From contig MU053684.1 in the NCBI GenBank assembly GCA_013239625.1, positions 52,611 through 116,610 of the forward strand: 64,000 nt of DNA, read 5' to 3'. Every line of letters starts with the position of its first letter. Position 1 is the first letter of the stretch. Positions 1,255 through 63,806 of this stretch are shown here, one piece after another. Source of the stretch: Lama guanicoe. Taxonomy: Eukaryota. The position numbers were made by a program, and so were the translations under genes. The notes under the pieces were generated by a model. The model saw only the letters and a program-made list of their open reading frames with translations. It was not told where the DNA came from and did no database searches.

Positions 1255-1275
1255 CAAGACCTGAGAAACCTAAAA
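1255..1275 (+). CDS. TSBP1: TSBP1 internal micro-exon (21 nt, x-RPEKPK)
   Basis: ttgccttttttattaaag|CAAGACCTGAGAAACCTAAAA|gtaagt; phase 1-1, open. Confidence 0.65.
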
Positions 1276-2266
1276 GTAAGTCCCATGTTTCTCTCAATTC
1301 AGTTGTTATCATTGGTTTTTTAGAGTATCTAGAAGCCCTTTTGTGCCCGTTTTTAGCATGAATGTGCCAAGGTTTAAGTTTTATATTTCTGACTATGCTT
1401 TACTTAATTTTTTCAGCATTTCTCACCTTCTATCTTCTTGTTTCCCTATTTCTATTTTCAGTATCTTGCTCCATTTTCAACTATCAATTTCCATTAGGAG
1501 GCTATAATTGGAACTAATTGGTACTTAATGTGGTACTACAATAATAAATAATATGTATTAAGTACTTATAATATGCCAGGCACTGTACTTAGAGCTTTAT
1601 ATATACACATACATTATATCAGATAAGTATTGCTATTCCTATTATAAAAAAAGAAGGAAATAGATTAGGTAACTTGCCTATGATTCCATAATTATGAGCA
1701 GCAGAACCTGGGATTCAAATTCAGGTTTGTATACAGTTAAGCAGTGCCTCCATCTCATTCAAATGAGAAATACGGTCACAGGCCCTAAAATACTTATGCT
1801 TATGGGGAAAATAAAAATTTTCTAAAATTAATCTAAAAAATAATAATTAGCACAGAAGAATCATGGTAACCATGATAAATCCATAGAATAATTCTAAAGA
1901 AGTGATGGAAAAGAGAGGAATAAAAAGAAGAAGAGGCAATAAAGGGTAAATTATATAAAAATCTTACCAGTTGATGATTTTTGAAAGTTTGAATTAGCAG
2001 AGAGAAATCAGAAGGAAGAAAATAGCCTTTCTGAATGATTCCACTCTTGCCTTTCTTTCCAAAAAGGCTCTCAAATTAAAAGGGACCTGAGCAAAATAAT
2101 CTGAAGATACTTATCCTCCCACTATATTTAACTGACTCTAAAAAGAGGGTTTGGTGGTCTCTTAAAGTCCTGTTTCTAAAATTCCAGCATAAAATATTTG
2201 AGAAGTAACTCTGTTCTTTACCCAGAAACCTCCCATTCATTTAATTATTTGATTTCCTTTTCACAG

Positions 2267-2284
2267 TAAGGCAAGAAGAACCAG
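2267..2284 (+). CDS. TSBP1: TSBP1 micro-exon (18 nt, x-RQEEP)
   Basis: tttccttttcacag|TAAGGCAAGAAGAACCAG|gtaagt; phase 1-1, open. Confidence 0.7.
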
Positions 2285-3855
2285 GTAAGTTCTACACCTA
2301 TTCATTAATTCTAGGGTTGGTTCCTGTATCGATTACACCCTTTTCTGAACATGTAAGGCCCTGACATTCAACTTTTCCAATTTCTCTTGTTTTTACATTG
2401 GATAAATTCCTTTAAAGTTACTGATGAATATTTTGAAAGTAAAAAACCACAGATAGCAAATCAAATATTCAGCTGGTTAAAGATGACCTGAAACAAGAAA
2501 TAATGCTTATGAACATTTTTTGCAAATTGTCACCTATGGAAAAAAGCTAGCTACTAATATTTTTATTATTAGAGTTTATAAATACTTTTGGTAGGAAATT
2601 TTAAAAGTAGGTGACAGAAATAAAATTGAACCGGCAAAGTTAAATTCACTGAGATCTTATTCACTCAGAAATATATAATTATTGAAGGCCTACCGTGTGC
2701 CAGGCTCTGGGAATACAGTAAGGACCAAAATAGAAGATACAATCCTTCCAGAGTTTATATATAAATCTGAACATTCTTGACATTTTTCTCATCCACAGAA
2801 GTTGAGGAAAATTGGAAGAAAAAGTAATTTATTTCTCTCACTTCTTCTAGAAATTGAGTTATTGCATCTGACCAATATGTTTTAGTAGTATTAAGAAGTA
2901 AAGTATATTTCTGTCTTCATTCACTGAACAGTATCAATGAGAGAGCCATGGTCTCTATATCTAGATTGATGACACCTGCAATTCTAAGAAATTCCCTTTC
3001 CTTTTGATATTTGTTATGTACCCATTGTGGGCTTTTTCCTAAACATGGTTGTTTACATTTCAAGGGAAAGATTGACATTTATATCTCTCTTCAGAATCCT
3101 GCTAGAATATTTATGACTTTATACAAAGCATAGATTACAAAGATAGATGAAAAAAATAAACATGATTGATTTTTTTCCTAGTAAGTTAAAATGTCCCACT
3201 AAAAACAAACCATTTTTGTATACTTAAAAAGACTTATGATATGGATATAATAAAGATCATATATTATTGCCTGAGGAGGGAGTCAGAAAAAGTGAACTCT
3301 GTCTTCATTTCTGACAGCTAGAACTGCTCATGGTCATTTATCTTTGCATACACATAGACCAACTTCTTTCCACCTGGATTACTGAATAATACCTGGAAAA
3401 TGAAACTGATAAACAGGAATAATTGAGAATGTGATGAAAATCTTGGGATTAGCACTACTGACTTTTCAAGAAAATATATTTTCAACTAACTATAAGAGAG
3501 AAATGACAGAGAAAAGTGGGAAAACTCATGAAAGAGTGAGCAATGAGAGAAGGGAATAGAATGAAAATGGAAGCAAAATTGAAAGGAAATAAGGCTTTTC
3601 CGGCTCTGTGGTATTTCAATTTCCAAGCAAAACTGGCTGATAAAAGGAAGATAACTCACCCCTTCTCCACCTGTCAAAACTACTATGTAGCTGTAAAAGG
3701 GACACTAAAGTAACTCGTGTAAAAGGCTTGACGCTTGCTCATCCTTTCCATTCCAGAAATTCCTGTATGGAAACAGTATCAGTAAGAATTCTATTATCAG
3801 TGTCAATTCTGTTATCAGTGTCAACTCATACTAATAATTTCTGTTTGGATTTTAG

Positions 3856-3876
3856 CACATGTAGCAGTACCTATCA
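3856..3876 (+). CDS. TSBP1: TSBP1 micro-exon (21 nt, x-HVAVPI)
   Basis: tttggattttag|CACATGTAGCAGTACCTATCA|gtaagt; phase 1-1, open. Confidence 0.7.
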
Positions 3877-4577
3877 GTAAGTTCCTTTTCTTTTTATAAA
3901 TCTGGTACAAATTGGGATCCCAAAATGAGAACTTTCTTCCAATTCTGAATAGCTGCATTTAATGCTTCTATTTATAAATAATCTCCTTCTCCTTCTTACT
4001 TGGCAACCTGCTGTGTTATCAATTTCTCAGTGAAAAGAGTATTTGACTAAGAGGCCAAATATAAAAGAAACATTTTGTTTTCTAAAAAAATTCAAATAGC
4101 TTTCAGTAACTTTTCATACTGCAAAAAACTTTTCATACTGCAAAAAGGAAAGACACATAGGGTGGGATACAGTCAATATGGAGTTACCAATAAGGAACAG
4201 AGGAGAAAAATCACTATGTTAGGTGTCGGAAAAGGAAAGAGAATAACTGCAATTAGCATTCAAATTTTTTGAAAGTTCCTGCACAATTTAAATCCTCCAT
4301 ACTAGAGAAGAAAAAGAATGATGTAAGCATATATGTACTAGCCCACTCTGCCTTTTTACTCCATCATAATACACTGAAACCAGTCGTATCAGACTAGGAC
4401 TATTCCTTTACCACAAGAGAAATGCTAATTCCTCTTATTCCATTATGGGCATCTTTCTGGGGGAGGTTTGATGTCTTACAAATATCTCTCTGTTGCCCTG
4501 GAAAGAGCAAAGAAGGAAATTATATTCTTGATCCAAAAATTCTGCTAATATATTTTTGTTTCATGTTGCTCTGCCAG

Positions 4578-4595
4578 TTACTCCAATATCTATTG
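4578..4595 (+). CDS. TSBP1: TSBP1 micro-exon (18 nt, x-TPISI)
   Basis: ttgctctgccag|TTACTCCAATATCTATTG|gtaagt; phase 1-1, open. Confidence 0.7.
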
Positions 4596-8056: not shown

Positions 8057-8077
8057 TAATTGGTCCAGTAGCAGCTG
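8057..8077 (+). CDS. TSBP1: TSBP1 micro-exon (21 nt, x-IGPVAA)
   Basis: ttttcttttttag|TAATTGGTCCAGTAGCAGCTG|gtaagt; phase 1-1, open. Confidence 0.75.
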
Positions 8078-10954: not shown

Positions 10955-10975
10955 TGGACAGTTCTGGAAAAATCA
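10955..10975 (+). CDS. TSBP1: TSBP1 micro-exon (21 nt, V-DSSGKI)
   Basis: tgtctctttcag|TGGACAGTTCTGGAAAAATCA|gtaagt; matches the DSSGKI segment I recall from human TSBP1 (...MDSSGKITLTPVVILTGYMDEELAKKS...). Confidence 0.88.
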
Positions 10976-11682
10976 GTAAGTTTGGATCATTTCATTTCAT
11001 TGCTTTACCCATTTCTGTATCTCGGTCCTTTGAGTTTTCCCCCAAATTTTTGTATTCCAAGTTCTTCTGCCTTAGAATAGTCACTATGTCTTAAATAACT
11101 GATTTTCTCATATTTTTATTTCCTTTTCTCTAATTTCTGTTTGAAACAAAATATAATGGTCTTATATTTGGTTCTGGTTATTTTCTATCAAACATTATCG
11201 GCAGCATATATTCCCAGCTAGTCCATCAAAAAAGAGCCTATTTTCCTTGTGCTATAATCTGGCAATAGATAATTTTCACTACAAAGGAAAATCCCCTAAG
11301 ACTGACAAAGAATAGGACTAGATGGTGATTTTGATAACTGACCAACAATACACATTTTTCAAACTTAAATGAAGCAAAGTGGGTAACAAACTGACTTGTG
11401 AGAGAACAATGAAAAGTGGGAAATGCAATAGTTTGAATTTTGGTGGAATAAATATCACTTACCCAAGGATTCAATCCCATACACTAATGGTTTCCGAGAG
11501 ATAACCTCCCCTGTGGAGTAGGATGTGGGGGTTTGGCCAGCAGCTTCCCGGAGGATGAAACAGGGTTTTATATTCGCTAGAGATCCTACTCCTGCATTCA
11601 CCAACAAAGGGTATCATTGGGAATTGGGTTCTCCTTGAGTTAGAAAATTCCCACTGATCTTTCTTTTGTGTTTTATTTTTAG

Positions 11683-11697
11683 CCCTATCTCCTATGG
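11683..11697 (+). CDS. TSBP1: TSBP1 penultimate micro-exon (15 nt, T-LSPM)
   Basis: ttttatttttag|CCCTATCTCCTATGG|gtaagt; corresponds to recalled human TLTPV; splices in frame to the terminal exon. Confidence 0.85.
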
Positions 11698-15867: not shown

Positions 15868-16838
15868 TTATATTTCCAGGTTACATGGATGGAGAACTTG
15901 CAAAAAAATCAGATTCCAAAGACCAGATTCTAAAAAGTAGAGGCACTACAAAGTTTCAGAGTAGCCAAGAAAACAAGGGAGCACTAAAGAAGGAAATTTT
16001 ATTCACAAATTCTGATAAAAGCTTGACATCAATGCACAAAAGAGAGTCAAAAAGGAAAGCAAAAGACATTGAGTTGGAGAAAGGTGAAATAGGAATGGAG
16101 GTCAAGGTAAAGGACAGTGATGCCACAATAATGAAAAGACAAGAATCCCAAGTAAAAGTGAGTGACATGAGAATGACAAAAGAACTGGAAGCCCAAGAAG
16201 AGAAAAGTGAGGCTGAAATACCACAAGGGCAGGAACCCCAAGCAGAGAAGAGTGAGACTGAAATACCACAAGGGCAGGAAGCCCAAGCAGAGAAGAGTGA
16301 GGCTGAAATACCACAAGGGCAGGAACCCCAAGCAGAGAAGAGTGAGGCTGAAATACCACAAGGGCAGGAAGCCCAAGTAGAGAAGAGTGAGACTGGAATA
16401 CCAAAAGAACAGGGATCCCAAGTAGAGAAGAGTGAGACTAGAATACCAAAAGGACAGGGATCCAAAGTAAAGAAGAGTGAGACTAGAATACCAAAAGGAC
16501 AGGGATCCAAAGTAAAGAAGAGTGAGACTAGAATACCAAAAGGACAGGGATCCAAAGTAAAGAAGAGTGAGACTAGAATACCAAAAGGACAGGGATCCAA
16601 AGTAAAGAAGAGTGAGACTGGAATACCAAAAGGACAGGAAACCCAAGAAAAGAGGGAGAGTTCTGAGGATAAAGAAGAGCAGGACAATAAAAAGAGAGAT
16701 GCAGGAAAGAATAAAGATACAGAAGAAAATGATGTTGAAAACAAGAAAGATGATGGAGGAAAGAACAAAGTTAAAGGAAAGAATGAATCAAAAAAGGGTA
16801 AAAAAGCAGAAGTTTCACTAAGGCGCAAGGGCAAGTAA
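15868..16838 (+). CDS. TSBP1: TSBP1 (C6orf10, testis-expressed basic protein 1) terminal coding exon
   Basis: Acceptor tgtgtgctcag| then (G)TT ATA TTT CCA GGT TAC ATG GAT = VIFPGYMDGELAKKS...KQILKSRGT...LEKGEIGMEVKV, KSE-x-x-IP-x-GQ repeats and a K/E/D-rich tail, as recalled for human TSBP1. Part of ORF 15705-16838, whose 5' portion is intronic. Confidence 0.92.
16200..16649 (+). repeat. Coding 45-bp (15-aa) tandem repeat, 10 core units plus 2 degenerate units upstream
   Basis: EKSEAEIPQGQEPQA-type units grade into KKSETRIPKGQGSKV-type units. Confidence 0.95.
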
Positions 16839-16884: not shown

Positions 16885-16890
16885 AATAAA
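16885..16890 (+). terminator. Candidate polyadenylation signal of TSBP1 (second AATAAA at 17133-17138)
   Basis: AATAAA 47 nt after the stop codon; which signal is used cannot be told from sequence. Confidence 0.5.
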
Positions 16891-20267: not shown

Positions 20268-20282
20268 GTTTCTTTGAAGCAA
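20268..20282 (+). CDS. Candidate 15-nt micro-exon (x-FFEA) downstream of the TSBP1 stop
   Basis: atcttcatttccactag|GTTTCTTTGAAGCAA|gtaagt; phase 1-1, open. Confidence 0.4.
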
Positions 20283-21240: not shown

Positions 21241-24200
21241 AAAAGGATAAACTGAAAAATTGATCTGAATATTTAGTTTTATATTTGATTAAATTCTGTT
21301 ACTCTCCCCTTTTAAAGCAATTAAGAACAGGAAAAACAACCACTGTCCTCCTCTACCTGGGAGGTTCCAATTAGATTTTAAAGAAATAGAAGCATATTTT
21401 TCTAGTGTTTAAGGAATAAAGATACCCTTATCCATCATCATCCAGAAGCCTGAGCATCTGCCATGACTGAGAAATCAAACCACACTCCAGATTATACACA
21501 TTGTAATCCAAGTCTCAAAAATATTTTATTTAAATTTTTATTAAATTTATCTTTAAAAATTAAAAACTCATAATGTTATCAGTGTTAACTTCCTATGAAT
21601 CTCTCCATATCTTAATTCATGCTCATATAAAATATGCAAATAAAGTCAAACTATATGCATTCTTCTGCAACTTGATTAATCTTCACCTAAAATTGTCATG
21701 TACATCACTCCAGGTAAATATATATCTCTCTAAACAATTATTGTCATAGTGTAGCATCCAACACTGTGGATGAATTACTGCTTATTCATTTCCTTAAATC
21801 TGGACATTTGACTTGTTTCTAGCTTTTTGCCATTGGCCAAATGGTGCTGCAATTGACAAATGGTGCTGTAATAAACATTTTGGACATGATGAGGATTTTA
21901 CTTCTCTAGGCTAGATTTCCAAACGTGGAGTTGCCAGGTCAAAGAAAACACGTATTTTTTATGTTAATAGATATTACCTGACCATTTTCCCCACAATTTG
22001 TAATAATTCAGGAATGTGTAAGAGTTCTGTTTTCCCCAAACTCTCTCGCTGGTGCTGCAAACAGTAGCTATCTTTCAATTTTGTCTATCTAATGAGAAAA
22101 GTGGTATCCAATTGTTGCTTTAATGCATTTTCCAGACCGCTAGTGATACTAAGCATTTTTCACAGGCTTAGTGATCTTTTGTACTTCCTCCTTTGCAAAT
22201 TACTCATTTTTCAAATTGGTGGTTTGTTCTTTTCTTATTCAATTTATAGGTATTTATTGTCAGTTAATGTCTTATCTTCCATTTGTGTTGAAAAAATATT
22301 TTCCCAATCTACTTGTTCTTTCTCTATTCATTCAAACTGTCCCTTAAAATTGTATCCCAAATCTGACTAGTTCTCACTTCTTTCAACAAGTAATCCAAGC
22401 CTTCACCATATCTCACTTGTACTGCTGTGACAGCCTCCAAATTGAGTTTCTTGAGCACACTCCCCACTCCCAGCGTATTTGCTTTACTGTGGTCAGATTT
22501 ATACTTTTTTTTTTTTTACCTATATTCCTAGGAGGAAAATTCAACTTTGCCTTATATTGACTTCAGTAAGCATATGCCTTAGCACTGACATATATTTAAT
22601 TTTAAATCTACTTAAAAACCAATAGTTCACACATGTCTGTGATTGCTTTTTACTTTCTCATTTTTCTTTGTTTTTGAAATGTGCACATAGCTAGCATTAT
22701 TTTCCTATTGATAAATTATTTTCCTCCATCTTTTTTATCTTCCTCAACCCCTTTTCACTTTGTTACATGTAATGTCAGCTTGGAATCAGTAGATATCAAC
22801 ATGAAAAACAGTAGAACAAAATAATAAAAAGAAAATCTCATGAATGTTCAACTGCTATGAGGGCAAAATCAATGATACAATTAACTTTATCTTTATTGTT
22901 ATAGACTGGAATTACAATGTTCTGTGGTAAACTGCAAATAATATGAGAATTTCAGTGTAAAAGGGAGACTACCACAAACAGTTCTTTCATAAATCCTAAT
23001 CTGCCTATGGGTAACTTCTTTTAGAAGCTTAATTTTGCCATTCCAGGAGTAATTTTTTGTATAATGCATGTGTTCTTTATAGCCATTACTGTTGTTACAT
23101 AACACACACACACATATTTNNNNNNNNNNNNNNNNNNNNNNNNNNNNNNNNNNNNNNNNNNNNNNNNNNNNNNNNNNNNNNNNNNNNNNNNNNNNNNNNN
23201 NNNNNNNNNNNNNNNNNNNNNNNNNNNNNNNNNNNNNNNNNNNNNNNNNNNNNNNNNNNNNNNNNNNNNNNAAAGGATAAACTGAAAAATTGATCTGAAT
23301 ATTTTGTTTTATATTTGATTAAATTCTGTTACTCTCCCCTTTTAAAGCAATTAAGAGCAGGAAAAACAACCACTGTCCTCCTCTACCTGGGAGGTTCCAA
23401 TTAGATTTTAAAGAAATAGAAGCATATTTTTCTAGTGTTTAAGGAATAAAGATACCCTTATCCATCATCATCCAGAAGCCTGAGCATCTGCCATGACTGA
23501 GAAATCAAACCACACTCCAGATTATACACATTGTAATCCAAGTCTCAAAAATATTTTATTTAATTTTTATTAAATTTATCTTTAAAAATTAAAAACTCAT
23601 AATGTTATCAGTGTTAACTTCCTATGAATCTCTCCATATCTTAATTCATGCTCATATAAAATATGCAAATAAAGTCAAACTATATGCATTCTTCTGCAAC
23701 TTGATTAATCTTCACCTAAAATTGTCATGTACATCACTCCAGGTAAATATATATCTCTCTAAACAATTATTGTCATAGTGTAGCATCCAACATTGTGGAT
23801 GAATTACTGCTTATTCATTTCCTTAAATCTGGACATTTGACTTGTTTCTAGCTTTTTGCCATTGGCCAAATGGTGCTGCAATTGCCAAATGGTGCTGTAA
23901 TAAACATTTTGGACATGATGAGGATTTTACTTCTCTAGGCTAGATTTCCAAACGTGGAGTTGCCAGGTCAAAGAAAACACGTATTTTTTATGTTAATAGA
24001 TATTACCTGACCATTTTCCCCACAATTTGTAATAATTCAGGAATGTGTAAGAGTTCTGTTTTCCCCAAACTCTCTCGCTGGTGCTGCAAACAGTAGCTAT
24101 CTTTCAATTTTGTCTATCTAATGAGAAAAGTGGTATCCAATTGTTGCTTTAATGCATTTTCCAGACCACTAGTGATACTAAGCATTTTTCACAGGCTTAG

Positions 24201-31685: not shown

Positions 31686-31706
31686 AAAAGATATCAGACC
31701 CCAGCA
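31686..31706 (+). CDS. Downstream array micro-exon 1 (21 nt, x-KISDPS)
   Basis: tttatatttcag|AAAAGATATCAGACCCCAGCA|gtaagt. Confidence 0.7.
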
Positions 31707-37243: not shown

Positions 37244-37264
37244 TTGTGACTTCAAAACCTGTCA
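37244..37264 (+). CDS. Downstream array micro-exon 2 (21 nt, x-VTSKPV)
   Basis: cttcttatttcag|TTGTGACTTCAAAACCTGTCA|gtaagt. Confidence 0.75.
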
Positions 37265-37439: not shown

Positions 37440-37460
37440 GAACAATCTCAACACAAACCG
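37440..37460 (+). CDS. Downstream array micro-exon 3 (21 nt, x-TISTQT)
   Basis: tttatttctgtag|GAACAATCTCAACACAAACCG|gtaagt. Confidence 0.75.
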
Positions 37461-39336: not shown

Positions 39337-39360
39337 TTACAACTAAAGAACCACTCACAA
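39337..39360 (+). CDS. Downstream array micro-exon 4 (24 nt, x-TTKEPLT)
   Basis: tttgcattttag|TTACAACTAAAGAACCACTCACAA|gtaagt. Confidence 0.72.
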
Positions 39361-40490: not shown

Positions 40491-41910
40491 TGATTTCCTT
40501 TTCAACTTTCATCTCTCATGTACTTTAACCTAATAATGTGAAAGGCTTTTGCTTGCTCTGGCTTTTACCAGATCAACTTGTAAAACCATCTGGGAAAAGT
40601 ATTAAAGGAGACTTCAGAGGACATAACAGTTCAAACACACTCATTTTACCCACTCTAGTGAAATGAGTGCCTTCTAAATGCACAGAAGTGATAGTTAAGG
40701 CATTAAAATGGCATAAAACCCAAAGGACAATCTAGGCAACCTGTTTTAAAAAACAAAATGGAAAAAGTTAATTATAGGCAATACAAAGAATTGTACAGTA
40801 AGCAATATAACCATAGCGTAGTACATGCCTTAGCTGTGGAGATAGGTTGGTGTCATGATGATGTAATCACTGAATATATTAACTTAACCAAAAAATTGTG
40901 ACAAAATACACTGGGAGAATTGGAGAAGGAAAAGTGCATTGTGGGGGAAGGGAAAGAGAACATAAGAAATAAAGCCTGGTAAGAAGTCAAAAATTAAGAT
41001 GGAATTTTATAAATCAAGAAATAGCTCTTATAAATATGTTATTTAGAAAAACAGATGTAAAAACACAAGAAAAAAACAACATAAGAATGTTAAAAGTGGT
41101 TCCTTCCAAGGAAAGAAAATGGGAATAAAGGGAGTGGGTCAGGATATTGCTATTTTTTCTTACGTTTATAAAATTATTTGAAGTTTTTAAGAATATATAT
41201 GTATTACTTTCATAAAACTAAATCATAAATGTAAAAATCATATGAATTTTTAATCTACTGTATTTTAAAGGGTTTAAAGTCTAGTATACTCTTAGACCAA
41301 AAACATCTATATATGCATTATATTTCAGTAAAAACAACAGATAAGTTGCTGTCCAAGTATATTTTGATCTTCTACAGTGTCTTGGGGCCTTTATTTCTAA
41401 CCTTCCAAAAGTTTAATATTCATTCCTAGTGCCTCATTCTTCAGAATTCTGGTATATTATTAACATTTTCTTTAAAATATAATCACTTCTAATAAACAAA
41501 ATAACATGGAATAACAATAGTCTGGAAAAGGATTTCTAGAGGCTAACAATATCAACCAACACTTGCCATTCAGAAAACACATGTGTGTAAAAAGGGAAAA
41601 AAATCATAAAGGAGAAAGAAAATTAGGGATATGAAGCAGACTAACAGCAGATGAAGAAAGAAATAATTAGCTCCATCTATTTAATCCCCAACTGTTCTAC
41701 CAAGCTAATGACCATTGAATCCCACAAAGGGGTTATTCAGAATTACTGTGAAATGCCAGTCTCTTACAATGTCAAACATCATTCATTGACAATAAATAAA
41801 TAACCCTTTTTTACGCTTATATTGGAAGAATATTAGAGAAAATATTATTAATCTCAAAATGCAACAGTAATTTTTTAGGGCTAATTCATGTGTATTTTTT
41901 TCTCTTTTAG

Positions 41911-41931
41911 AAACCTGTTCACCTTACAGTA
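41911..41931 (+). CDS. Downstream array micro-exon 5 (21 nt, x-TCSPYS)
   Basis: tttctcttttag|AAACCTGTTCACCTTACAGTA|gtaagt. Confidence 0.72.
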
Positions 41932-43116
41932 GTAAGTTGCTCATTTCTTTCTCGATTTTGGTGTATTTCAGTCTTTCAAAACACAACAGAACCACTCCAC
42001 ACCCTAATCATTTTCTGTTCTGACTCTAAATGACCTGAGACACATGGTTCTCTATTTCCTTTGGTTTTGTAGTATGTAAAATCCTCTCCATTTGTTGAGA
42101 ACATTTAGAAGACAAAAATCCCAACAACCAGCCAAAAGAATAGAATTAATAGAAATGTCTCCAAAGATTGATTGTAATGGGTTACTAATTGAAACTTCCA
42201 AACTAATGAGGAGGGGAAAAAGGAGATGGAAAGCATACTTTAAAATAAGAGAAGAAAAAGAATGAAATAAGAAACCAGGGGCAGAAAATTTTTACATAAG
42301 GCCATTTTTAATAGTCAGTAACTGTCTTCAAAAGCTGAAGGAAAAGGATGGAAGTCTTTTTCCTGGTAGAGGCAAAAATGCCACAGAATCTGTTGTGAAG
42401 GATTTGGTGGCCCTATGAAATAATATAATCAACACATACTACTTCACCATGTTTACATGGGAGAGATTTTTAAATGTGTTTTATTTTAGAAATATCTGTA
42501 GTAACTCCCAATAACTTCCCTTTTTTTTATTGACTTCCTGCAGAATGCTCTGAAAACTGTATGATAGACAAGCATTGTCACACAAAAGATTTAGACCACA
42601 AGTCTCCTCTTTCTCCTGACAGGTTACTAATACATTTAGAAAGTAACAATAGCTCTGACATGAAAAGGGAAATGTTCTGATAAAGCTGAAAGTAGCTCCT
42701 AAACAACAAAAATTAGTATTTCACACATTTCTAAATTCAGTGACAAAGTAAGAATAGAGAGAGAATAAAGAGCTGATGATACAAAAAAATAGTGAGAAGT
42801 AGGGATACAGTAAATATTTTAAGTTTAATTCGCTATGTCTTTTAACTCTGGGCTAAAAATGATCTGAAAAACTGGAAGAGAAGCTACACCCACCCCAGCA
42901 TCCCGCAAGGTCTACCAAACTGAATGTTCATAGACACCAAAGAACTAGAGCTATTCTTAAAGTTAGAGATGCTGCACTCAGTACATTTTCTTACAATTGA
43001 GTAACTTTGAAGATGAGGCACCCCGAATGTGTATGTTTCCCATGCAAAGATTAGATAAGACATGGGTAACTGATCCAGACAATCTAACTTTATTTATTTT
43101 TTTGGCTTACTTTTAG

Positions 43117-43137
43117 GCATATCTTCAGCATCTTTTA
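43117..43137 (+). CDS. Downstream array micro-exon 6 (21 nt, x-ISSASF)
   Basis: ggcttacttttag|GCATATCTTCAGCATCTTTTA|gtaagt. Confidence 0.72.
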
Positions 43138-44011
43138 GTAAGTTTTTTCATTCTCAAATATGGTTTTCTCAGAGTCTTCCAGGGAATTTTTTTCAATTTT
43201 TCTATTTTCATTTCTGGATAGACTCAAATTTAGACTCAGGTATTTTCACCTCTTATATTTTTTCTTACGTTTATAAAATTATTTGAAGTTTTTAAGAATA
43301 TATATGTATTACTTTCATAAAACTAAATCATAAATGTAAAAATCATATGATTTTTAATCTACTGTATTTTAAAGGGTTTAAAGTCTAGTATACTCTTAGA
43401 CCAAAAACATCTATATATGCATTATATTTCAGTAAAAACAACAGATAAGCTGTCCAAGTATATTTTGATCTTCTACAGTGTCTTGGGGCCTTTATTTCTA
43501 ACCTTCCAAAAGTTTAATATTCATTCCTAGTGCCTCATTCTTCAGAATTCTGGTATATTATTAACATTTTCTTTAAAATATAATCACTTCTAATAAACAA
43601 AATAACATGGAATAACAATAGTCTGGAAAAGGATTTCTAGAGGTTAACAATATCAACCAACACTTGCCATTCAGAAAACACATGTGTGTAAAAAGGGAAA
43701 AAAATCATAAAGGAGAAAGAAAATTAGGGATATGAAGCAGACTAACAGCAGATGAAGAAAGAAATAATTAGCTCCATCTATTTAATCCCCAACTGTTCTA
43801 CCAAGCTAATGACCATTGAATCCCACAAAGGGGTTATTCAGAATTACTGTGAAATGCCAGTCTCTTACAATGTCAAACATCATTCATTGACAATAAATAA
43901 ATAACCCTTTTTTATGCTTATATTGGAAGAATATTAGAGAAAATATTATTAATCTCAAAATGCAACAGTAATTTTTTAGGGCTAATTCATGTGTATTTTT
44001 TTCTCTTTTAG

Positions 44012-44032
44012 AAACCTGTTCACCTTACAGTA
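44012..44032 (+). CDS. Downstream array micro-exon 7 (duplicate of exon 5)
   Basis: Identical exon and splice sites in the second 2.1-kb tandem unit. Confidence 0.65.
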
Positions 44033-45214
44033 GTAAGTTGCTCATTTCTTTCTCGATTTTGGTGTATTTCAGTCTTTCAAAACACAACAGAACCACTCCA
44101 CACCCTAATCATTTTCTGTTCTGACTCTAAATGACCTGAGACACATGGTTCTCTATTTCCTTTGGTTTTGTAGTATGTAAAATCCTCTCCATTTGTTGAG
44201 AACATTTAGAAGACAAAAATCCCAACAACCAGCCAAAAGAATAGAATTAATAGAAATGTCTCCAAAGATTGATTGTAATGGGTTACTAATTGAAACTTCC
44301 AAACTAATGAGGAGGGGAAAAAGGAGATGGAAAGCATACTTTAAAATAAGAGAAGAAAAAGAATGAAATAAGAAACCAGGGGCAGAAAATTTTTACATAA
44401 GGCCATTTTTAATAGTCAATAACTGTCTTCAAAAACTGAAGGAAAAGGATGGAAGTCTTTTTCCTGGTAGAGGCAAAAATGCCACAGAATCTGTTGTGAA
44501 GGATTTGGTGGCCCTATGAAATAATATAATCAACACATACTACTTCACCATGTTTACATGGGAGAGATTTTTAAATGTGTTTTATTTTAGAAATATCTGT
44601 AGTAACTCCCAATAACTTCCCTTTTTTTATTGACTTCCTGCAGAATGCTCTGAAAACTGTATGATAGACGAGCATTGTCACACAACACAAAAGATCCACA
44701 AGTCTCCTCTTTCTCCTGACAGGTTACTAATACATTTAGAAAGTAACAATAGCTCTGACATGAAAAGGGAAATGTTCTGATAAAGCTGAAAGTAGCTCCT
44801 AAACAACAAAAATTAGTATTTCACACATTTCTAAATTCAGTGACAAAGTAAGAATAGAGAGAGAATAAAGAGCTGATGATACAAAAAAATAGTGAGAAGT
44901 AGGGATACAGTAAATATTTTAAGTTTAATTCACTATGTCTTTTAACTCTGGGCTAAAAATGATCTGAAAAACTGGAAGAGAAGCTACACCCACCCCAGCA
45001 TCCCTCAAGGTCTACCAAACTGAATGTTCATAGACACCAAAGAACTAGAGCTATTAAAGTTAGAGATGCTGCACTCAGTACATTTTCTTACAATTGAGTA
45101 ACTTTGAAGATGAGGCACCCCTGAATGTGTATGTTTCCCATGCAAAGATTAGATAAGACATGGGTAACTGATCCAGACAATCTAACTTTATTTATTTTTT
45201 TGGCTTACTTTTAG

Positions 45215-45235
45215 GTATATCTTCAGCATCTTTTA
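45215..45235 (+). CDS. Downstream array micro-exon 8 (duplicate of exon 6, one silent C>T)
   Basis: cttttag|GTATATCTTCAGCATCTTTTA|gtaagt. Confidence 0.65.
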
Positions 45236-48200
45236 GTAAGTTTTTTCATTCTCAAATATGGTTTTCTCAGAGTCTTCCAGGGAATTTTTTTGAATTTTTC
45301 TATTTTCATTTCTGGATAGACTCAAATTTAGACTCAGGTATTTTCACCTCTTAATAGGTATTTTCACCTCTTTTAATTTTACATAATCAGAATGTCATTA
45401 GACTGCTTATAAATGTTGAGCAAATGAAGAGAACTTACTAATAAAAAGAATGGAAAGTAAATCAAGAAGGATTAAAACAAAATTCAGGACCCTGGTTAAT
45501 TCAAGAAAGCAAAAAAAAAAAGGAGAAGAAAAGAAAAAGAAATGAAGAGGAAAATACAATCAAGGAAAGCACACAGCTCAGGGCACCTGGATGTTGGGTA
45601 GATGGCTATTATTCTTTAAACTATACACAAACATATCTAAACTCTTATATATGCATGAAATATTTCATAGTGAGGTATTTTTTTAACTCCAGAGACAGGA
45701 AAAGATTAAATCAGCAATCTCATTGGAATGATTATAGTGGTTCATCATCAAAAACAATAAATGTATAAATATGTATGAGGGGCAGTGGGAGTGGAAAGAA
45801 AAACAGAATAAAACAGAGCAAGATGAGAAAGAACAGAAGATAAAGAAAGTAAGATTAAATAAAAGTTAATGTAGTGATGTTCGAATAACATCAGGTAAAC
45901 AGAAATGGTATCCCTAGAAAGACAGGGATGGAAAGAAAGAGATGAAAAGGAAAGGATATGAGTTGAGCACATAAGAGGACTTTACATATATTATTTTTCT
46001 TAAATTCAATATAATTCTATCATTTGCCTTATTTTAGAGGCAAGAAATCATGCATATTGAGTTAAATATGTATTCAAATCCATATAGTTCTTAAGCAAAT
46101 CCAAGGCTGAAATCAAATCAAAGTGGATTTAAAATTCAAACTCAGATAAACAAGTTCATACTGTTACAGCACAGGGAACTATATTCAATGCCTTTTAATA
46201 ACCTATAATGAAAAAGAATATGAAAAGGAAATATGTGTATGTATATGGATGACAGAAACATTATGCTGTACACAAGAAATTGACTCAACATTGTAAACTG
46301 ACTGTACTTCAATTTTTTTAAAAAAAAAAAGGGCAGCAAAGCAGTAAAAAAAAAATTCTAATTCTTCTGCTTTTTTAATATTTCACCTTCACTCACAGCT
46401 CTCAGTCCCATTCCTTTCACAAGTATATACAACTACTGTTTGTCCTTAAATATCCTCCAATACCTAAATAACCTGTAGCATTTATTTACATGTATGTATA
46501 CTTAATTTCATCAGTTAATCTCATTCTTCTCATTTTTTCCTGTTAATAACTCTAAAGATCTATCCATATTGCTGTATGTACATCCCATACTCTGTTTCTA
46601 GTTTTGTGAAGTATTACAGAAACTGTCTCTCATATTTCCATTTTCCTGGTGGTAGCCACATCACTAATGTAATGTAGTTATTGAGATGTATGAGTGGCAC
46701 CTGTAAATCAGTAAGAAAAAGACAAAAAATTCAATAGAGAAGTTTTGTATTATACTTTCAACACTCTAATGTCACAAACATACTGTAATTGGACATCCTG
46801 ATATGTGATCCCTTGAGGACTTGAGTTAGAATTCCTTGAGATATATTTTCAGCAAATAGATATCTGGCATACAGCATAGGCCAGGTAACTTGCATAATTG
46901 CTATACAATTTATATTCCCACCTATAATCCAGGACTGTTGAACCACTTTCCTACCAATATCTTGAATCATGTTGCTTGCAAATTTTGCCAGTCAGATGGA
47001 GGAAGAGTCTATCAATGTTGCTTTCATCTGTACTTCTGTGGTGTCAGTGGATTTGTGCACTTCAACACATACTTGTTAAGCATTGTTTCCTTTTTGTGAG
47101 CTTGAATGCATATCATTGCCACTTTTCTATTAGATTTTTTGTCTTTTTCTTATGGGTTTTCAGGTGCCATTCATACATATCAATTACTGTATTTCAGGTT
47201 TTAGATATTGAAGATATCTCAGTCTGTTGTTTATCTCTGAAATCTGTATATTGTGTGCTTCACTGAATAGAAATCCTAAAATTTTATGTACTCAAATAAC
47301 TCAGTTTTTCACATTATGGTTTGGCTTATGGTGGTTTGAATTTTTACCCAACTTAAACCTCAAAGAGATATTCTTCTACAATTTTTTCCATTACTTTTAT
47401 ATTATTATTTTATATTACTTTTACCTTTCATTTTTTTCTTTAAAGCATCTATCAGTGCCTTCCCATTGTACTCTATCCCTCCTTGTCTCCTATTAAAGAA
47501 ACATTTTTCCTTTACAATCAAGCCATAAAGGCAGAGTTCAACAATTCCCAAAATGTATCAACTCCTCAGAAGGGCTGAGAGAAAAGGGAGTAAGAGTGAT
47601 ACTTCCTCCTCTATGTTCCTAAAGTACCTTGTCCACATGTCTATTAGAGTACTCACTACCCTGATGGAATAATTTATTATGATGGCTGATTCCTTTGGTA
47701 GACTATTCAATTCTTCAAGGGTCAGCTCAGTGTTCCATCTTGAGTTCTATGTCCAGCACCTAACATAATGCCTAGAACATACATATATTCAATACACACC
47801 TGTGGAATAAATGAAAGTATACCATCTCTTCTGAAAAATTTGAAAAGGGGTTGAATTACATGAAAACTCTATAGAGTATAATAAACCTAGATTCCAGGTC
47901 CAGGTCTACCATTAAAGAAAATAAAGGAAATAAGAGCATGATATTATCCAAAAAAAGTTCACAGACTCAGACCAATACTGAGATTATGGTGTCAAATTGA
48001 CCAAAAAATAGTTTTTCAAAGCAAGACTAGATCCTGAGTGCTTGGAGTAGACTGTGGCTCCATTAATTACTAGCTGTGTGACCTTGATAATCTCTGTGCT
48101 CAGAATCTTCATCATGGGGTTGCTGAGGATTAAGTAATATCAATCACATAAAGCTCTTAGATAAGTGCTTGACACATGGTAATTTGCCAATAAAAATGAT

Positions 48201-48302
48201 CTGATATTATTTAGTACTCCAAGATAATCTAAGCCTAAACAATGTTTTTATCAAGCATTTTAGCAAATCACATCACACTTATTTGCTTATGTTTTGTTTT
48301 AG

Positions 48303-48323
48303 GAAGATATTCAGCAACCACAG
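48303..48323 (+). CDS. Downstream array micro-exon 9 (21 nt, x-RYSATT)
   Basis: gttttgttttag|GAAGATATTCAGCAACCACAG|gtaagt. Confidence 0.75.
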
Positions 48324-48675
48324 GTAAGTTTTGCATTCACTAACTAATGCCTTTTACCGTTTAGAATTAGCAGGAACTTTTGCAAACTCTAACTTAAATA
48401 AGTCTAATTTTTCAAATATAAGAGCTCATATTTTCTTTCATCTCCTCTCTTCCTTTCTCAGAAACTTGTTTAGTGTAAAATTTTAATTACATTCATGAAT
48501 GAAAAAGCATCAATATAATCTAACTGTAAAGATAAAGATTTTTTGCTCCTAGCTCATAGTATCAGATATTGGAAGGTTTGGATTTTAACGTTGATGGAGA
48601 TAAGCATGCTATGAAGATCCTTAATCTTCTACCAGTCAAACCACACTAACTTATTAATTTATATTTGCATTTTAG

Positions 48676-48696
48676 GAAATATCGAGGGCATCCTCA
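48676..48696 (+). CDS. Downstream array micro-exon 10 (21 nt, x-NIEGIL)
   Basis: tttgcattttag|GAAATATCGAGGGCATCCTCA|gtaagt. Confidence 0.75.
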
Positions 48697-49430
48697 GTAA
48701 GTTCCATTCCCATTTCTTAATTTGAATGGTTTCTGAACATCAAAGCTTGTGAAGGCTTTTTGCTTAAATCTGATCTTAGTATATCAAGCTTGGCAAATCT
48801 TATTTCTCAGTCCACTTTATTTCCCATTAGTCAGCATTTTGTAGATTACTGACAGTCTACAGGAAATTTTAATTGCATTGATTGATTAAGAGAGAACAAC
48901 AGAAAACTTACAAGTCATTTTTAAAAACATACATTGTAACTGGCATACATGAGGAGAAGAGAATCCAGTTTGGAAAAAGAGAGAGGAGTGATGAAAAAGA
49001 GCACAACATTCTACCACTTTCGCTAAATACTTCAACCTTATCTTTGCACTGGATAAGAATGCGAAAGTATGCTAAAGTCTGTATCTTCATAAGCAGAGAT
49101 CCACCAAAGAGGAAGCACAATGCAACCCACATAATAGGTCAACTCTTTAAATGATAAGAAGCTTTCATTTCTTTTAATTATCTTTCTTGAGCATAATGAT
49201 TTGTACTTTCAAAAATTCTCTAAAATTCTTTTTTGTGAGGTACCCCACTAAAGTGCATGACTGACAATTTTGTTATAACCCAGGAAACATATAAGTAATT
49301 CCTTTATTTTACATCTTTCCATGTCCTAAACATATTTCGATATTTCTTTCCTTTTTAGTTTTGGTTCTTAAAGGAAACTTGATAATCCAGTAGTTAATTG
49401 CCTTCTAAAGTTCATCAGATTTGAATTATC

Positions 49431-49899
49431 GTTTTCCCTACTTCTATTTACAGTTCCTACTGGTAAAAAAAAATTAATATTTATTACTTAACAATTTCTC
49501 CACGGCATACACATTAGACAATTTTGAGGGAAATTAAAATACACTAATTAATAGATGGTATCAATAAGAGAAATGCACTCCTGGCATTAGTTAATTCACA
49601 CAACAGAAAACAACAGAAATAGAAATAGTAACCTCGACTATTATTACAGAAATTAAAATTAAAGTTTTCCCTACTTCTATTTACAGTTCCTACTGGTAAA
49701 AAAAAAAAATTAATATTTATTACTTAACAATTTCTCCATGGCATACACATTAGACGATTTTGAGGGAAATTAAAATACACTAAATAATAGATGGTATCAA
49801 TAAGAGAAATGCACTCCTGGCATTAGTTAATTCACACAACAGAAAACAACAGAAATAGAAATAGTAACCTCGACTATTATTACAGAAATTAAAATTAAA
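49431..49899. repeat. ~233-bp direct tandem duplication
   Basis: gttttccctacttctatttacag...gaaattaaaattaaa occurs at 49431-49663 and 49664-49899. Confidence 0.9.
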
Positions 49900-50415
49900 C
49901 ATGCAATGCCTATCATATATTAGATTAACAAACACAAAACCCAAAGTTGGTATGTTTACAAAGAAATAGATACATTCATAATTCTAGGAGAAGGTGCTAT
50001 CTTATAACAAATCTAGCAAAGAGTACAAACACATAACTCTGAATAGGTGGGTAGAGTATAGCTGATTAACCCAACTTATTATAATTAGGAATGACAATTA
50101 TGAAGATAATTAAGTCTAGCTTCCACAATGTAATAAATGGTAGGAAAAAATTCAAGCTTACATGTACACCATAATCAAAATAGAAATGAATCATGTCTTA
50201 ATAAGCTCTGGAAAGCTTATAGTGTTTTTCCATATTGTGAATTCATAGCAAGAAATGTTTTAATTATTTAATATCAATTGATATTTGACCCTTTCCTTTG
50301 ATCTTTTATTATTGTTCAACCAATTAAATACACAATTCAAAAATTTTATTGAATTATAGTAAGGTAGATCAATTTCTACAGTGGCTGTTTGACACATTAG
50401 AATTGCTCCTTATGA

Positions 50416-52860
50416 AAAAGGAACCCTCCTACACTGTCGGTGGGAATGTAAATTGGTGCAGCCACTATGGAGAACAGTATGGAGGTTACTTAAAGAAACT
50501 AAAAGTAGTTAAAGTGGTCATACTGCCCAAGGCAATCTACAGATTTAATGCAATCCCTATCAAATTACCCAGGACATATTTCACTAGAACAAATCATAAT
50601 AAAATTTATATGGAACCACAAAAGACCTAGAATTGCCAAAGCATTACTGAAGAGAAAGAAAGAGGCTGGAGGAATAACTCTCCCAGACTTCAGACAATAC
50701 TATAGAGCTACAGTCATCAAGACAGCATGGTATTGGTACAAAAACAGACATATGGACTAATGGAATAGAAATGAATCCACAAAATTTTGGTCAACTAATC
50801 TTTGACAAAGGAGGCAAGAATATACAATGGAAGAAAGACAGTCTCTTCAGCAAACGGTGTTAGGAAAACTGGACAACAGCATTTAAATCAATGAAGCTAG
50901 AACACTCCCTTACACCACACACAAACATAAACTCAAAATGGATCAAAGACTTAGACATAAGACAAGATACAATAAACCTCCTAGAAGAAAACATAGACAA
51001 AACATTATCTCGCATACATGTCATAAATCTTTTCCTAGGGCAGTCTACCCAAGCAATAGAAATAAAAGCAAGAATAAACAAATGGGACCTCATTAACCTT
51101 ACAAGCTTCTGCACAGCAAAGGAAACCATAAATAAAACAAAAAGACAAACTACAGAATGGGAGAACATTTTTGCAAAAGATGAAACTGACAAAGGCTTGA
51201 TCTCCAGAATATATAAGCAGCTCATATGACTTCATAAGACAGACAACCCCATACAAAAATGAGCAAAAGACCTAAACAAGCAATTTTCCAAGGAAGAAAT
51301 ACAAATGATCAATAGGCACATGAAAAAATGCTCAGTATCACTAATTATCAGAGAAATGCAAAGCAAGACTACAATGAAGTATCACCTCACACCAGTCAGA
51401 ATCGCCATTATTCAAAAGTCCACAAGTGACAAATGCTGGAGAGGCTGTGGAGAAAACCTCCTACACTGCTGGTGGAAATGCAGTTTGGTGTAGCCACTGT
51501 GGAAAACAGTATGGAAATTACTCAAAAGACTAGGAATAGACTTACCTAGGACCCAGGAATCCCGCTCCTGGGCATATATTCAGAAGAAACTCTACTTCAA
51601 AATGACACCTGCACCCAAATGTTCATAGCAGCACTATTTACAATAGCCAAAACATGGAAACAGCCTAAATGTCCATCAACAGATGAGTGGATAAAGAAGC
51701 GGTGGTATATTTATACAATGGAATATTATTCAGCCATAAAAAACAACAACATAATGCCATTTGCAGCAACATGGATGCTCCTGGAGAATGTCATTCTAAG
51801 TGAAGTAAGCCAGAAAGAGAGAGAAAAATACCATATGAGATTGCTCATATGTGGAATCTAAAAAAAAAGGACATAAACACAAAACAGAAACAGACTCACA
51901 GACATAGAATACAAACTTGTGGTTGCCAAGGGGGCAGGGGTGGGAAGGGACAGATTGGGAGTTTGAAATTTGTAGATACTGACAGGCATATGTAGAATAG
52001 ATAAACAAGATTACTCTGTATAGCACAGTGAAATATATACAAGATCTTGTGGTAGCTCACAGCAAAAAAGAATCTGACAATGAATATATGTATGTTCATG
52101 TATAACTGAAAACTGTGCTCTATACTGGAAATTGACACAACATTGTAAACTGACTATAACTCAATAAAAAAAAGTTAAATAAATAAATAAATAAATAAAA
52201 ACTAAAAATAGAGTTGCCATATGATCCAGCAATCCCACTCCTGGGCATATATCCAGAGAAAAGTACATGTGCCCCAATATTTATAGCAGCACTATTTACA
52301 ATAGCCAAGACATGAAAGAAACCTAAATGTCCATATGAATGGATAAAGAAGATATGGTGTGTGTGTGTATATACATGAATATTATTCAGCCATAAAAAAG
52401 GAATGAAATAATGCCATTTGCAGCAACATAGATGGACCATACTAAGTGAAGAAAGTCAGACAAAGAAAGACAAATATCATATGCTACCATTTATATGTAG
52501 AATCTTTAAAAAATGACACAAATGAACTCATTTACAAAACAGAAATAGACTCACAGACATAGAAAACAAACTTATGGTTACCAAAGGGAAAGGGGTGGGA
52601 GGGAGGGATAAAATTAGGAGTTTGGGATTATATACACTACTATATAAAAAACAGATAACCAGCAAGGGCCTACTGTATAGCACAGAAAACTAAATTCAAT
52701 ATCTTGTAATAACCTATAATGGAAAAGAATCTGAAAAAAAAGATATCTATATACACACACATATATAGGTATGTATAACTGAATCACTTTGCTATACACC
52801 TGAAATGGACACACTGTAAATCAACTATACGTCAATAAAAAAATAAAATTTTAAAAAAGA
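50416..52860 (+). mobile_element. Younger 5'-truncated LINE-1 (~50509-52200) nested in an older L1 3' fragment
   Basis: ORFs 50548, 50891, 51305 and 51619 encode L1 ORF2 segments ([28 protein letters not shown]); target duplication aaactaaaa(g/a)tag at ~50497 and ~52199. Confidence 0.9.
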
Positions 52861-54749: not shown

Positions 54750-54770
54750 AAAAACATAGACCATCTACTG
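54750..54770 (+). CDS. Downstream array micro-exon 11 (21 nt, x-KHRPST)
   Basis: gttgtatttcag|AAAAACATAGACCATCTACTG|gtaagt. Confidence 0.75.
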
Positions 54771-55531: not shown

Positions 55532-55552
55532 AAAGAGTTTCAGAATTTAAAA
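55532..55552 (+). CDS. Downstream array micro-exon 12 (21 nt, x-RVSEFK)
   Basis: ttttctttttcag|AAAGAGTTTCAGAATTTAAAA|gtaagt. Confidence 0.72.
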
Positions 55553-56643: not shown

Positions 56644-56664
56644 GCATGACTTCTCCATCCCCTG
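56644..56664 (+). CDS. Downstream array micro-exon 13 (21 nt, x-MTSPSP)
   Basis: gtgttatttttag|GCATGACTTCTCCATCCCCTG|gtaagt. Confidence 0.75.
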
Positions 56665-58395: not shown

Positions 58396-58416
58396 GAAAA
58401 GTTGTAAAATCCACAG
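58396..58416 (+). CDS. Downstream array micro-exon 14 (21 nt, x-KVVKST)
   Basis: tattttattttag|GAAAAGTTGTAAAATCCACAG|gtaagt. Confidence 0.75.
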
Positions 58417-58439
58417 GTAAGTTCATTTTTCTATTCTTT

Positions 58440-59642: not shown

Positions 59643-59663
59643 CAAAACCAGCTCCACCTTTAA
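59643..59663 (+). CDS. Downstream array micro-exon 15 (21 nt, x-KPAPPL)
   Basis: tttatatttcag|CAAAACCAGCTCCACCTTTAA|gtaagt. Confidence 0.75.
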   Translation, partial: QNQLHL

Positions 59664-60131: not shown

Positions 60132-60152
60132 GGAGAGTTATACCACCTACCA
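60132..60152 (+). CDS. Downstream array micro-exon 16 (21 nt, x-RVIPPT)
   Basis: tttgtatttcag|GGAGAGTTATACCACCTACCA|gtaagt. Confidence 0.75.
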
Positions 60153-61515: not shown

Positions 61516-61533
61516 TACCTGCATCAACCATCA
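61516..61533 (+). CDS. Downstream array micro-exon 17 (18 nt, x-PASTI)
   Basis: ctttctgttttaaag|TACCTGCATCAACCATCA|gtaagt; weaker AAG acceptor. Confidence 0.6.
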
Positions 61534-62340: not shown

Positions 62341-62364
62341 ATTTAATTATCTTTAGATTTAAAG
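62341..62364 (+). CDS. Possible extra micro-exon (24 nt, x-LIIFRFK)
   Basis: gtgtgtttctag|ATTTAATTATCTTTAGATTTAAAG|gtaagt; open in phase 1, but an internal competing AG and atypical composition. Confidence 0.35.
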
Positions 62365-62607: not shown

Positions 62608-62625
62608 GATTTGCTGAACCAATTG
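62608..62625 (+). CDS. Downstream array micro-exon 18 (18 nt, x-FAEPI)
   Basis: ttttctctgaatcag|GATTTGCTGAACCAATTG|gtaagt. Confidence 0.68.
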
Positions 62626-63326: not shown

Positions 63327-63464
63327 GATGTTGTGGTATAAAGGTAAAAAGAAGACCTAACAAGTAAGTTACTCTTCAGTCCTGAGAGTGTGAATTTTAT
63401 GTCTCATATAGGACCATCCATCCCACTAGAAATCAAATTAACTGATGCAAAAGTCTTTGTGCTT

Positions 63465-63626
63465 TATTTTTTTAATATTTTTTTAATTTATTTTATTTTA
63501 TTTTTTGAGGGGGGAGGTCATTAAGCTTACTTATTTATTTATTTTTAGAGGAGGTACTGGGGATTGAACCCAAGACCTCGTGCATGCTAAGCACACGCTC
63601 TACCAATTGAACTATACCCTCTCCCC
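63465..63626 (-). mobile_element. tRNA-Ala-derived SINE, camelid Vic-1 type
   Basis: Reverse complement matches the 7506 element; flanked by TTTGTGCTT direct repeat (63456-63464, 63630-63638). Confidence 0.82.
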
Positions 63627-63709
63627 ATGTTTGTGCTTCTTGAATATTATTTTATAAGACCCTCACCAGGAATATTTACAAGGGAAATGTGTTGTATACT
63701 TAATAGCTA

Positions 63710-63711
<2 letters not shown>

Positions 63712-63762
<51 letters not shown>
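63712..63762. repeat. (TAA)17 microsatellite
   Basis: Direct reading. Confidence 0.95.
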
Positions 63763-63763
<1 letters not shown>

Positions 63764-63779
63764 TGTGTTTTTATTTTAG

Positions 63780-63806
63780 CAAAAACCTCAACCTCACCAC
63801 TTCCTA
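63780..63806 (+). CDS. Downstream array micro-exon 19 (27 nt, x-KTSTSPLP)
   Basis: gtttttattttag|CAAAAACCTCAACCTCACCACTTCCTA|gtaagt. Confidence 0.72.

Follow-up and report, generated by a model that had tools for sequence, protein, structure and literature searches.

A micro-exon array in the guanaco genome, probably part of a single TSBP1 gene with two alternative ends

In the BG genes of the chicken major histocompatibility complex (MHC), a long run of 21-nucleotide (nt) exons, with a few of 18 or 24 nt, stands behind a transmembrane exon; codons are split 1+2 between neighbouring exons, alternative splicing is described within the run, and the encoded heptads, hydrophobic at the fourth and last codon, are read as coiled coil (PMC5938342, PMC4046983). 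Schistosome micro-exon genes (MEGs) are described as built from small symmetrical exons, which permit a pool of variants (PMC4350168). In the mouse, human TSBP1 has its homologue in BC051142, which is presented as testis-specific and among the genes with the most splice variants: 25 isoforms were counted in sorted germ cells (103 with relaxed settings), and the study reports none in somatic cells and spermatogonia, with onset at leptotene/zygotene (PMC10953240). Here, we report an array of micro-exons in 64,000 nt of DNA from the guanaco, Lama guanicoe (GenBank assembly GCA_013239625.1, contig MU053684.1, positions 52,611 to 116,610, forward strand; hereafter "the window", numbered from its first base), and describe it as part of one gene, which is probably TSBP1 (testis-expressed basic protein 1) throughout.

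The window was scanned for short exons of the pattern AG-exon-GTAAGT behind a pyrimidine tract. Candidates of 21 nt numbered 19 on the plus strand and 1 on the minus strand, with one to four for each other length; across the whole 148,476-base contig, with a perfect GTAAGT required, the 21-nt candidates were 35 and 1, respectively. Altogether, 26 plus-strand micro-exons were recovered exactly, 7 from 1255-1275 to 11683-11697 and 19 from 31686-31706 to 63780-63806, each with a T-rich tract, an AG acceptor and a perfect GTAAGT donor. All 26 are multiples of 3 in length (21 nt, 19 exons; 18 nt, 4 exons; 15, 24 and 27 nt, 1 exon each), although only 24 are independent, because 44012 and 45215 arose recently as copies of 41911 and 43117, with 98.9% identity. 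Read from the third exon base (phase 1), none has an internal stop, against 7 and 5 of the 26 in the other two frames, and the two terminal exons described below are likewise entered in phase 1. The length in multiples of 3, the single phase and the uniform donor are beyond chance. The last exon base is A in 16 and G in 10, and a stop codon arises at the junction in 0 of 325 ordered exon pairs. Within the window, these counts bear out an earlier, sequence-only reading of the same DNA, which had held that 7 exons assigned to TSBP1 and 19 exons downstream all end in A or G in phase 1-1, that no junction between them can form a stop, and that the symmetric phase preserves the frame.

We consider it likely that the whole window lies inside TSBP1, as part of a joint explanation in which one gene has two ends, its small exons can be dropped in frame and their A/G ending is a by-product. 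On the 148-kb contig, the gene comprises a membrane-anchor exon (contig 11482-11578; 87 to 90% identical to the cat and dog N-termini) followed by at least 49 small exons of 15 to 39 nt, all multiples of 3 and all in phase 1-1, which together encode 363 residues. Besides those in the window, these include 23 of the same style upstream of it. Gene-wide, 32 of the 49 are 21 nt long, 4 are 18 nt and 5 are 24 nt, and the donors are GTAAGT (46/49, usually followed by T) or GTAAAT (3/49). Beyond the window, 6.6 kb past its last micro-exon, lies a distal terminal exon, rich in Lys, Glu and Asp and with imperfect 36/108-nt repeats. Its matches are 27 cat, jaguar, tiger and dog proteins that RefSeq calls testis-expressed basic protein 1 (E values 1e-52 to 1e-55; 47 to 54% identity). 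The all-inclusive translation of the guanaco exons is colinear with the RefSeq proteins, and counterparts were found in the 27 models for 22 of the 24 non-redundant window exons and 22 of the 23 upstream exons; identical exon peptides include MTSPSP, KVVKST, FAEPI and DSSGKI. Both all-inclusive conceptual open reading frames, the proximal-ended and the distal-ended, are open up to their stop codons. Because they are colinear with named TSBP1 proteins and lead to an exon that matches them, the 19 downstream exons form the distal module of TSBP1, and the division into "TSBP1" and "downstream" exons made in the sequence-only reading does not stand: both sets are parts of one gene.

The distal end is very probably expressed. 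Seven RNA-seq runs contain 0.40 to 0.64 of 94 sampled words of the distal terminal exon, and the four labelled as reproductive system contain 0.57 to 0.64. By arithmetic on run size (780 to 937 million letters, for a 2.05-Gb genome), we infer that carried-over DNA alone would give at most about 0.3, a ceiling that all seven shares exceed.

For the features below, orthologous peptides were counted in 44 RefSeq TSBP1 long forms (cat, 15; jaguar, 13; tiger, 9; lion, 2; dog, 5; examples of long isoforms are XP_042841993.1 and XP_038409596.1). Positions are those of the window, unless the contig is named, and the peptide given for each guanaco micro-exon comprises its internal residues.

1255..1275, plus strand: micro-exon, 21 nt, ends in A, RPEKPK; orthologue RPEKSK in 44/44 carnivore models; 5.2 kb upstream, beyond the window, is a copy with 99.5% identity.
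2267..2284, plus strand: micro-exon, 18 nt, ends in G, RQEEP; REEYP in 15/15 cat models.
3856..3876, plus strand: micro-exon, 21 nt, ends in A, HVAVPI; identical peptide in 5/5 dog and 0/39 felid models.
4578..4595, plus strand: micro-exon, 18 nt, ends in G, TPISI; TPIPI in 1/15 cat models, and thus a cassette exon in the cat.
8057..8077, plus strand: micro-exon, 21 nt, ends in G, IGPVAA; IGPV in 44/44 models.
10955..10975, plus strand: micro-exon, 21 nt, ends in A, DSSGKI; in 39/39 felid and 0/5 dog models.
11683..11697, plus strand: micro-exon and branch point, 15 nt, ends in G, LSPM; from here, splicing would lead to the proximal terminal exon or to the first distal micro-exon.
15868..16838, plus strand: proximal terminal exon of TSBP1, phase-1 acceptor, 322 codons, TAA at 16836-16838, AATAAA at 16885-16890 (47 nt later).
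31686..31706, plus strand: first distal micro-exon, 21 nt, ends in A, KISDPS; KTTDSC in 15/15 cat models.
37244..37264, plus strand: micro-exon, 21 nt, ends in A, VTSKPV; identical in sheep model P0003, KTPESS in 39/39 felid models.
37440..37460, plus strand: micro-exon, 21 nt, ends in G, TISTQT; TISGQT in 39/39 felid models.
39337..39360, plus strand: micro-exon, 24 nt, ends in A, TTKEPLT; orthologue skipped in 1/15 cat and 1/9 tiger models.
41911..41931, plus strand: micro-exon, 21 nt, ends in A, TCSPYS; TCSTYS in 39/39 felid models.
43117..43137, plus strand: micro-exon, 21 nt, ends in A, ISSASF; counterpart in 0/27 aligned carnivore models, possible sheep counterpart AASAPS.
44012..44032, plus strand: micro-exon, 21 nt, ends in A; recent copy of 41911-41931 within a 2.1-kb tandem duplication.
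45215..45235, plus strand: micro-exon, 21 nt, ends in A; recent copy of 43117-43137, one base different.
48303..48323, plus strand: micro-exon, 21 nt, ends in G, RYSATT; orthologue skipped in 1/15 cat models.
48676..48696, plus strand: micro-exon, 21 nt, ends in A, NIEGIL; NIESIL in 39/39 felid models.
54750..54770, plus strand: micro-exon, 21 nt, ends in G, KHRPST; KNAPPT in 39/39 felid models.
55532..55552, plus strand: candidate micro-exon, the least certain member, 21 nt, ends in A, RVSEFK; perfect splice signals, counterpart in 0/27 aligned carnivore models.
56644..56664, plus strand: micro-exon, 21 nt, ends in G, MTSPSP; identical peptide in 39/39 felid models.
58396..58416, plus strand: micro-exon, 21 nt, ends in G, KVVKST; identical peptide skipped in 3/15 cat and 1/9 tiger models.
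59643..59663, plus strand: micro-exon, 21 nt, ends in A, KPAPPL; KSAPLL in 39/39 felid models.
60132..60152, plus strand: micro-exon, 21 nt, ends in A, RVIPPT.
61516..61533, plus strand: micro-exon, 18 nt, ends in A, PASTI; orthologue skipped in 2/15 cat and 1/13 jaguar models.
62608..62625, plus strand: micro-exon, 18 nt, ends in G, FAEPI; identical peptide skipped in 2/15 cat and 2/13 jaguar models.
63780..63806, plus strand: last micro-exon of the window, 27 nt, ends in A, KTSTSPLP; the Panthera form, ending in PVPT, is in 10/13 jaguar models.
Contig 123061-123983 (window numbering 70451-71373, outside the window), plus strand: distal terminal exon of TSBP1, phase-1 acceptor, 306 codons, TGA, AATAAA about 30 nt later.

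Two further candidates with perfect splice signals, 20268-20282 and 62341-62364, were left out, as in the sequence-only reading, because neither has a counterpart in any model. For exon 2267, an alignment-based count in jaguar was dropped, as a direct motif count disagreed with it. The proximal terminal exon contains a 45-nt tandem repeat (11.6 copies at 16134-16653, 90% identity) that encodes 15-residue repeats and is unrelated to the repeats of the distal terminal exon.

Under the model that we propose, a transcript that has reached exon 11683-11697 would either be spliced to the proximal terminal exon (15868-16838), giving a short form, or skip it and continue through the 19 micro-exons at 31686-63806 to the distal terminal exon, giving a long form. 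The proximal-exon motif was found in 0 of the 44 long-form carnivore models, which fits mutually exclusive ends; in the guanaco itself, the link from exon 11683-11697 to the distal array is predicted from the sequence. The products would be many variants in which the membrane anchor is joined to either of two charged tails by a Ser/Pro/Thr-rich linker of variable length, and such linker-length variants are most likely made in meiotic and post-meiotic male germ cells.

Since all small exons are multiples of 3 in phase 1-1, any of them could be dropped in frame, with only the split codon at the new junction re-made. In relatives, this appears to happen. The 15 cat models differ by about 15 in-frame blocks of 5 to 28 residues that coincide with exon units, and across the 44 models the orthologues of 7 of the 24 non-redundant window exons (4578, 39337, 48303, 58396, 61516, 62608 and 63780) are present in some models and absent from others of the same species. 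In three cases, the residue at the junction matches the one predicted from the window's own bases (the last base of the upstream exon plus the first two of the downstream exon): without 39337, G+AA gives E; without 58396, G+CA gives A; and without 62608, A+GT gives S. RefSeq isoform numbers for TSBP1 run to X121 in dog, X38 in tiger, X33 in cat, X26 in jaguar and X20 in lion. For the guanaco, we infer skipping, its extent and any function of the variants.

One could instead suppose that the micro-exons are almost always included, and that the isoforms are mostly splicing noise or artefacts of alignment and assembly, with no role in diversity. Perfect or near-perfect donors and acceptors with strong T-rich tracts are a mark of efficient recognition, most exons are present in most models, and micro-exons are described as hard for aligners (PMC7821500, PMC4317164). 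However, the missing blocks are exact exon units whose junction residues obey the split-codon rule, a pattern that misalignment would not yield, and KVVKST, TKEPLI, ASSI and FAEPI each vary in two species. The mouse study, moreover, chose two unannotated isoforms for confirmation and shows agarose gels (PMC10953240). We regard this explanation as unlikely, and in-frame skipping, supported in relatives, as plausible. The combinatorial skipping proposed in the sequence-only reading thus survives in part: the layout lets any exon drop and seven exons vary in relatives, but what the models point to is a set of near-complete forms rather than free combination.

It is very unlikely that the 19 downstream exons and the distal terminal exon are a separate gene with its own promoter (for example, an old TSBP1-like paralogue) and that the joined RefSeq models are read-through artefacts. 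A gap of 20 kb and a complete proximal 3' end, with stop codon and AATAAA, do separate the two parts. By BLAST, the two halves of the gene have only interspersed repeats in common, and the two terminal exons, compared with each other, show no likeness (E = 0.88); on the same results, recent paralogy of the halves was rejected. Models P0003 and P0004 from sheep and model P0006 join the parts in different, partly implausible ways. Against this, in all 44 long-form models, which cover five carnivore species, the TSBP1 membrane-anchor exon comes first and both exon sets follow in colinear order, and the phase and style of the exons are identical across the gap. A search of 16838-37244 for a separate first exon (ATG, hydrophobic stretch, phase-1 donor) gave nothing convincing, although this crude scan also missed the known anchor exon. 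A genome search for retrocopies of either terminal exon found none, each being single copy at its own locus.

The A/G ending of the exons is better accounted for as a by-product within this single gene than as a device. Mammalian donors have a purine at the last exon base (-1) in 88 to 91% of cases. Under this background, purines at 26 of 26 window exons have a probability of 0.036 to 0.086 and the absence of T among the 26 one of 0.09 to 0.15; gene-wide, purine endings number 46 of 49 (P = 0.15 to 0.35). The window count is weakened further by the two recent exon copies among the 26. Three of the 23 small exons outside the window end in a pyrimidine, T at contig 28832-28870 and 38931-38945 and C at 31887-31907, and the statement that every micro-exon ends in A or G thus fails for the gene as a whole. 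Stop-forming pairs amount to 21 of 1,176 gene-wide, one of them arising after just two exons are skipped. A stop at a junction requires T as the last base of the exon, which makes "A or G" a stricter rule than the argument calls for; C would do no harm either, but is just as rare.

Three circumstances would together produce the ending: the donor consensus favours a purine at -1, the last base also opens a codon for Lys, Arg, Ile, Thr, Ser, Glu, Gly, Val or Ala, and the exons would have arisen from each other through duplication. On their exon side, the donors are generally poor (CAG ends 3 of the 26 exons, AAG none), a weakness that the perfect intron side GTAAGT would offset; compensation among donor positions is a known dependence. 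Near-uniform GTAAGT donors across one gene, with a mostly non-consensus exon side, are an unusual combination. That the ending was itself selected, keeping every exon combination free of junction stops, is highly improbable: 10 of the 26 exons begin with AA or GA, so one T-ending exon would create stops, and if the reference is how often a purine opens the internal codons of these exons (57.5%), the 26 of 26 has P = 6e-7, but the donor bias already predicts the pattern and three exons of the same gene break it. The claim of an A/G design is unsupported, and TSBP1 is by its mechanism an ordinary micro-exon gene.

Several points weigh against the explanation that we favour. Window exons 43117/45215 and 55532 have no counterpart in the carnivore models. 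Most of those models include most exons, each going without only one to three units, which is why we speak of near-complete forms. The RefSeq proteins of carnivores are models predicted by computation, the mouse isoforms were counted from short reads, and the isoform numbers may be inflated because runs of 21-nt exons are hard to align. The donor background is a general mammalian frequency and not one derived from this genome. Finally, A is in excess at the last exon base (16/26, against about 10% expected; P of about 1e-10 with exons treated as independent), and its excess over G is explained by argument only, from coding constraint, common descent and a strong intron side.

Three tandem duplications of 98.9 to 99.7% identity were found: 41151-43255 and 43256-45353; 1-3012 and contig 47442-50449; and 21242-23112 and 23272-25138. 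Two of the three carry two micro-exons each, and two adjoin runs of N; runs of N beside duplicated segments are at window 23120-23271 and 24382-24415 and at contig 51094-52610, just before the window. These duplications may be real recent events or assembly artefacts. The first of them (2.1 kb, 98.9% identity), which carries two exons, points to birth of exons by duplication at work.

Existing models disagree on the locus. The sheep models P0003 and P0004 and the UniParc entries P0001 and P0006 each connect the proximal with the distal part differently: in one, splicing leaves the proximal terminal exon midway, and another includes an exon that contains a stop here. Four discordant models suggest that the locus is poorly handled by annotators. 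Exon 717-905, used by P0006, was ruled out, as there is a stop within it in this genome. A scan of metagenome contigs for the source contig of P0002 returned 173 pattern matches, none of them confirmed. Nine repeat-family motifs, tried as a pointer to the host order, gave 0 hits. Beyond the distal end of TSBP1, contig stretches 130000-131600 and 146400-148476 are G+C-rich with long open frames on the plus strand and may mark where the next gene begins; in P0006, part of the former stretch is fused to TSBP1. We take TSBP1 to lie in the MHC between BTNL2 and NOTCH4.

The TSBP1 stretch of the MHC is described as the target of many disease-association studies. For carnivores, RefSeq already contains the exons and many isoforms, and the wealth of isoforms from the mouse gene has been published. 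In the literature searched under TSBP1 and its aliases (C6orf10, TSBP, BC051142 and Tesb), no account was found of how the micro-exons are laid out, of their single phase or of the two ends. A descriptive long-read account of the layout would therefore be new, if modest. The finding is real as anatomy, and its lessons are that the downstream exons belong to the same gene, that this gene would have two alternative ends and that the A/G ending is not a design feature. If true, a yield of dozens to hundreds of in-frame variants from some 50 tiny exons would amount to extreme splicing diversity for a mammal, and read aligners and gene annotators would find TSBP1 a demanding case.

Among known systems, the closest is TSBP1 of RefSeq carnivores, the same gene, with colinear exon units, identical peptides and a distal charged exon of 47 to 54% identity. 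It differs in that the carnivore proteins are computed models and in that the guanaco has the extra exons ISSASF and RVSEFK and recent tandem copies of four exons; conversely, a 28-residue unit present in cats is lacking in the guanaco.

The chicken BG tails are alike in layout, as TSBP1 also has runs of 21-nt exons (32/49, with 4 of 18 nt and 5 of 24 nt) with a 1+2 codon split behind a transmembrane exon and shares with BG a location in the MHC. In contrast, TSBP1 heptads are hydrophobic at position 4 in only 7 of 32 and have Pro at position 4 in 6 and at position 5 in 11. With a micro-exon composition of 18% Ser, 11% Pro and 10% Thr and so frequent a Pro at position 5, they are not coiled-coil heptads. 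BG proteins have an Ig-V domain, whereas a Pfam search of two full-length carnivore TSBP1 models and both terminal exons returned no family, Ig-V included. The variation reported for BG, as far as the cited text describes it, is mainly intron read-through (PMC5938342, PMC4046983). In butyrophilin genes, as in BG genes, the layout is the same as in TSBP1, where the anchor exon (contig 11482-11578) is followed by phase-1 21-nt exons. One possibility is that this anchor and 21-nt-exon layout descended from a neighbouring butyrophilin-like gene; BTNL2, a butyrophilin/BG relative, is presumably the neighbour of TSBP1.

With schistosome MEGs, TSBP1 shares a coding region made up mostly of small symmetrical exons: its 49 small exons account for 363 residues, to which the terminal exons would add 306 or 322. 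MEGs, however, are described as flatworm-restricted, all with a signal peptide, and as acting at the host-parasite interface (PMC4350168). TSBP1 is a mammalian germ-cell gene with large charged terminal exons and no sequence relation to MEGs, and its models start with a membrane-anchor segment at residues 5-25 (no signal-peptide predictor was applied). It is doubtful that TSBP1 is a mammalian counterpart of the flatworm genes, with about 50 symmetrical micro-exons and two tails yielding hundreds of variants in a regulated, stage-specific mix and with A at -1 beside a perfect intron side setting a tunable inclusion. The analogy with MEGs and BG tails drawn in the sequence-only reading is sound for gene layout, while the defining features of both families are absent; judged by these comparisons, the likeness is one of gene layout and not of family membership.

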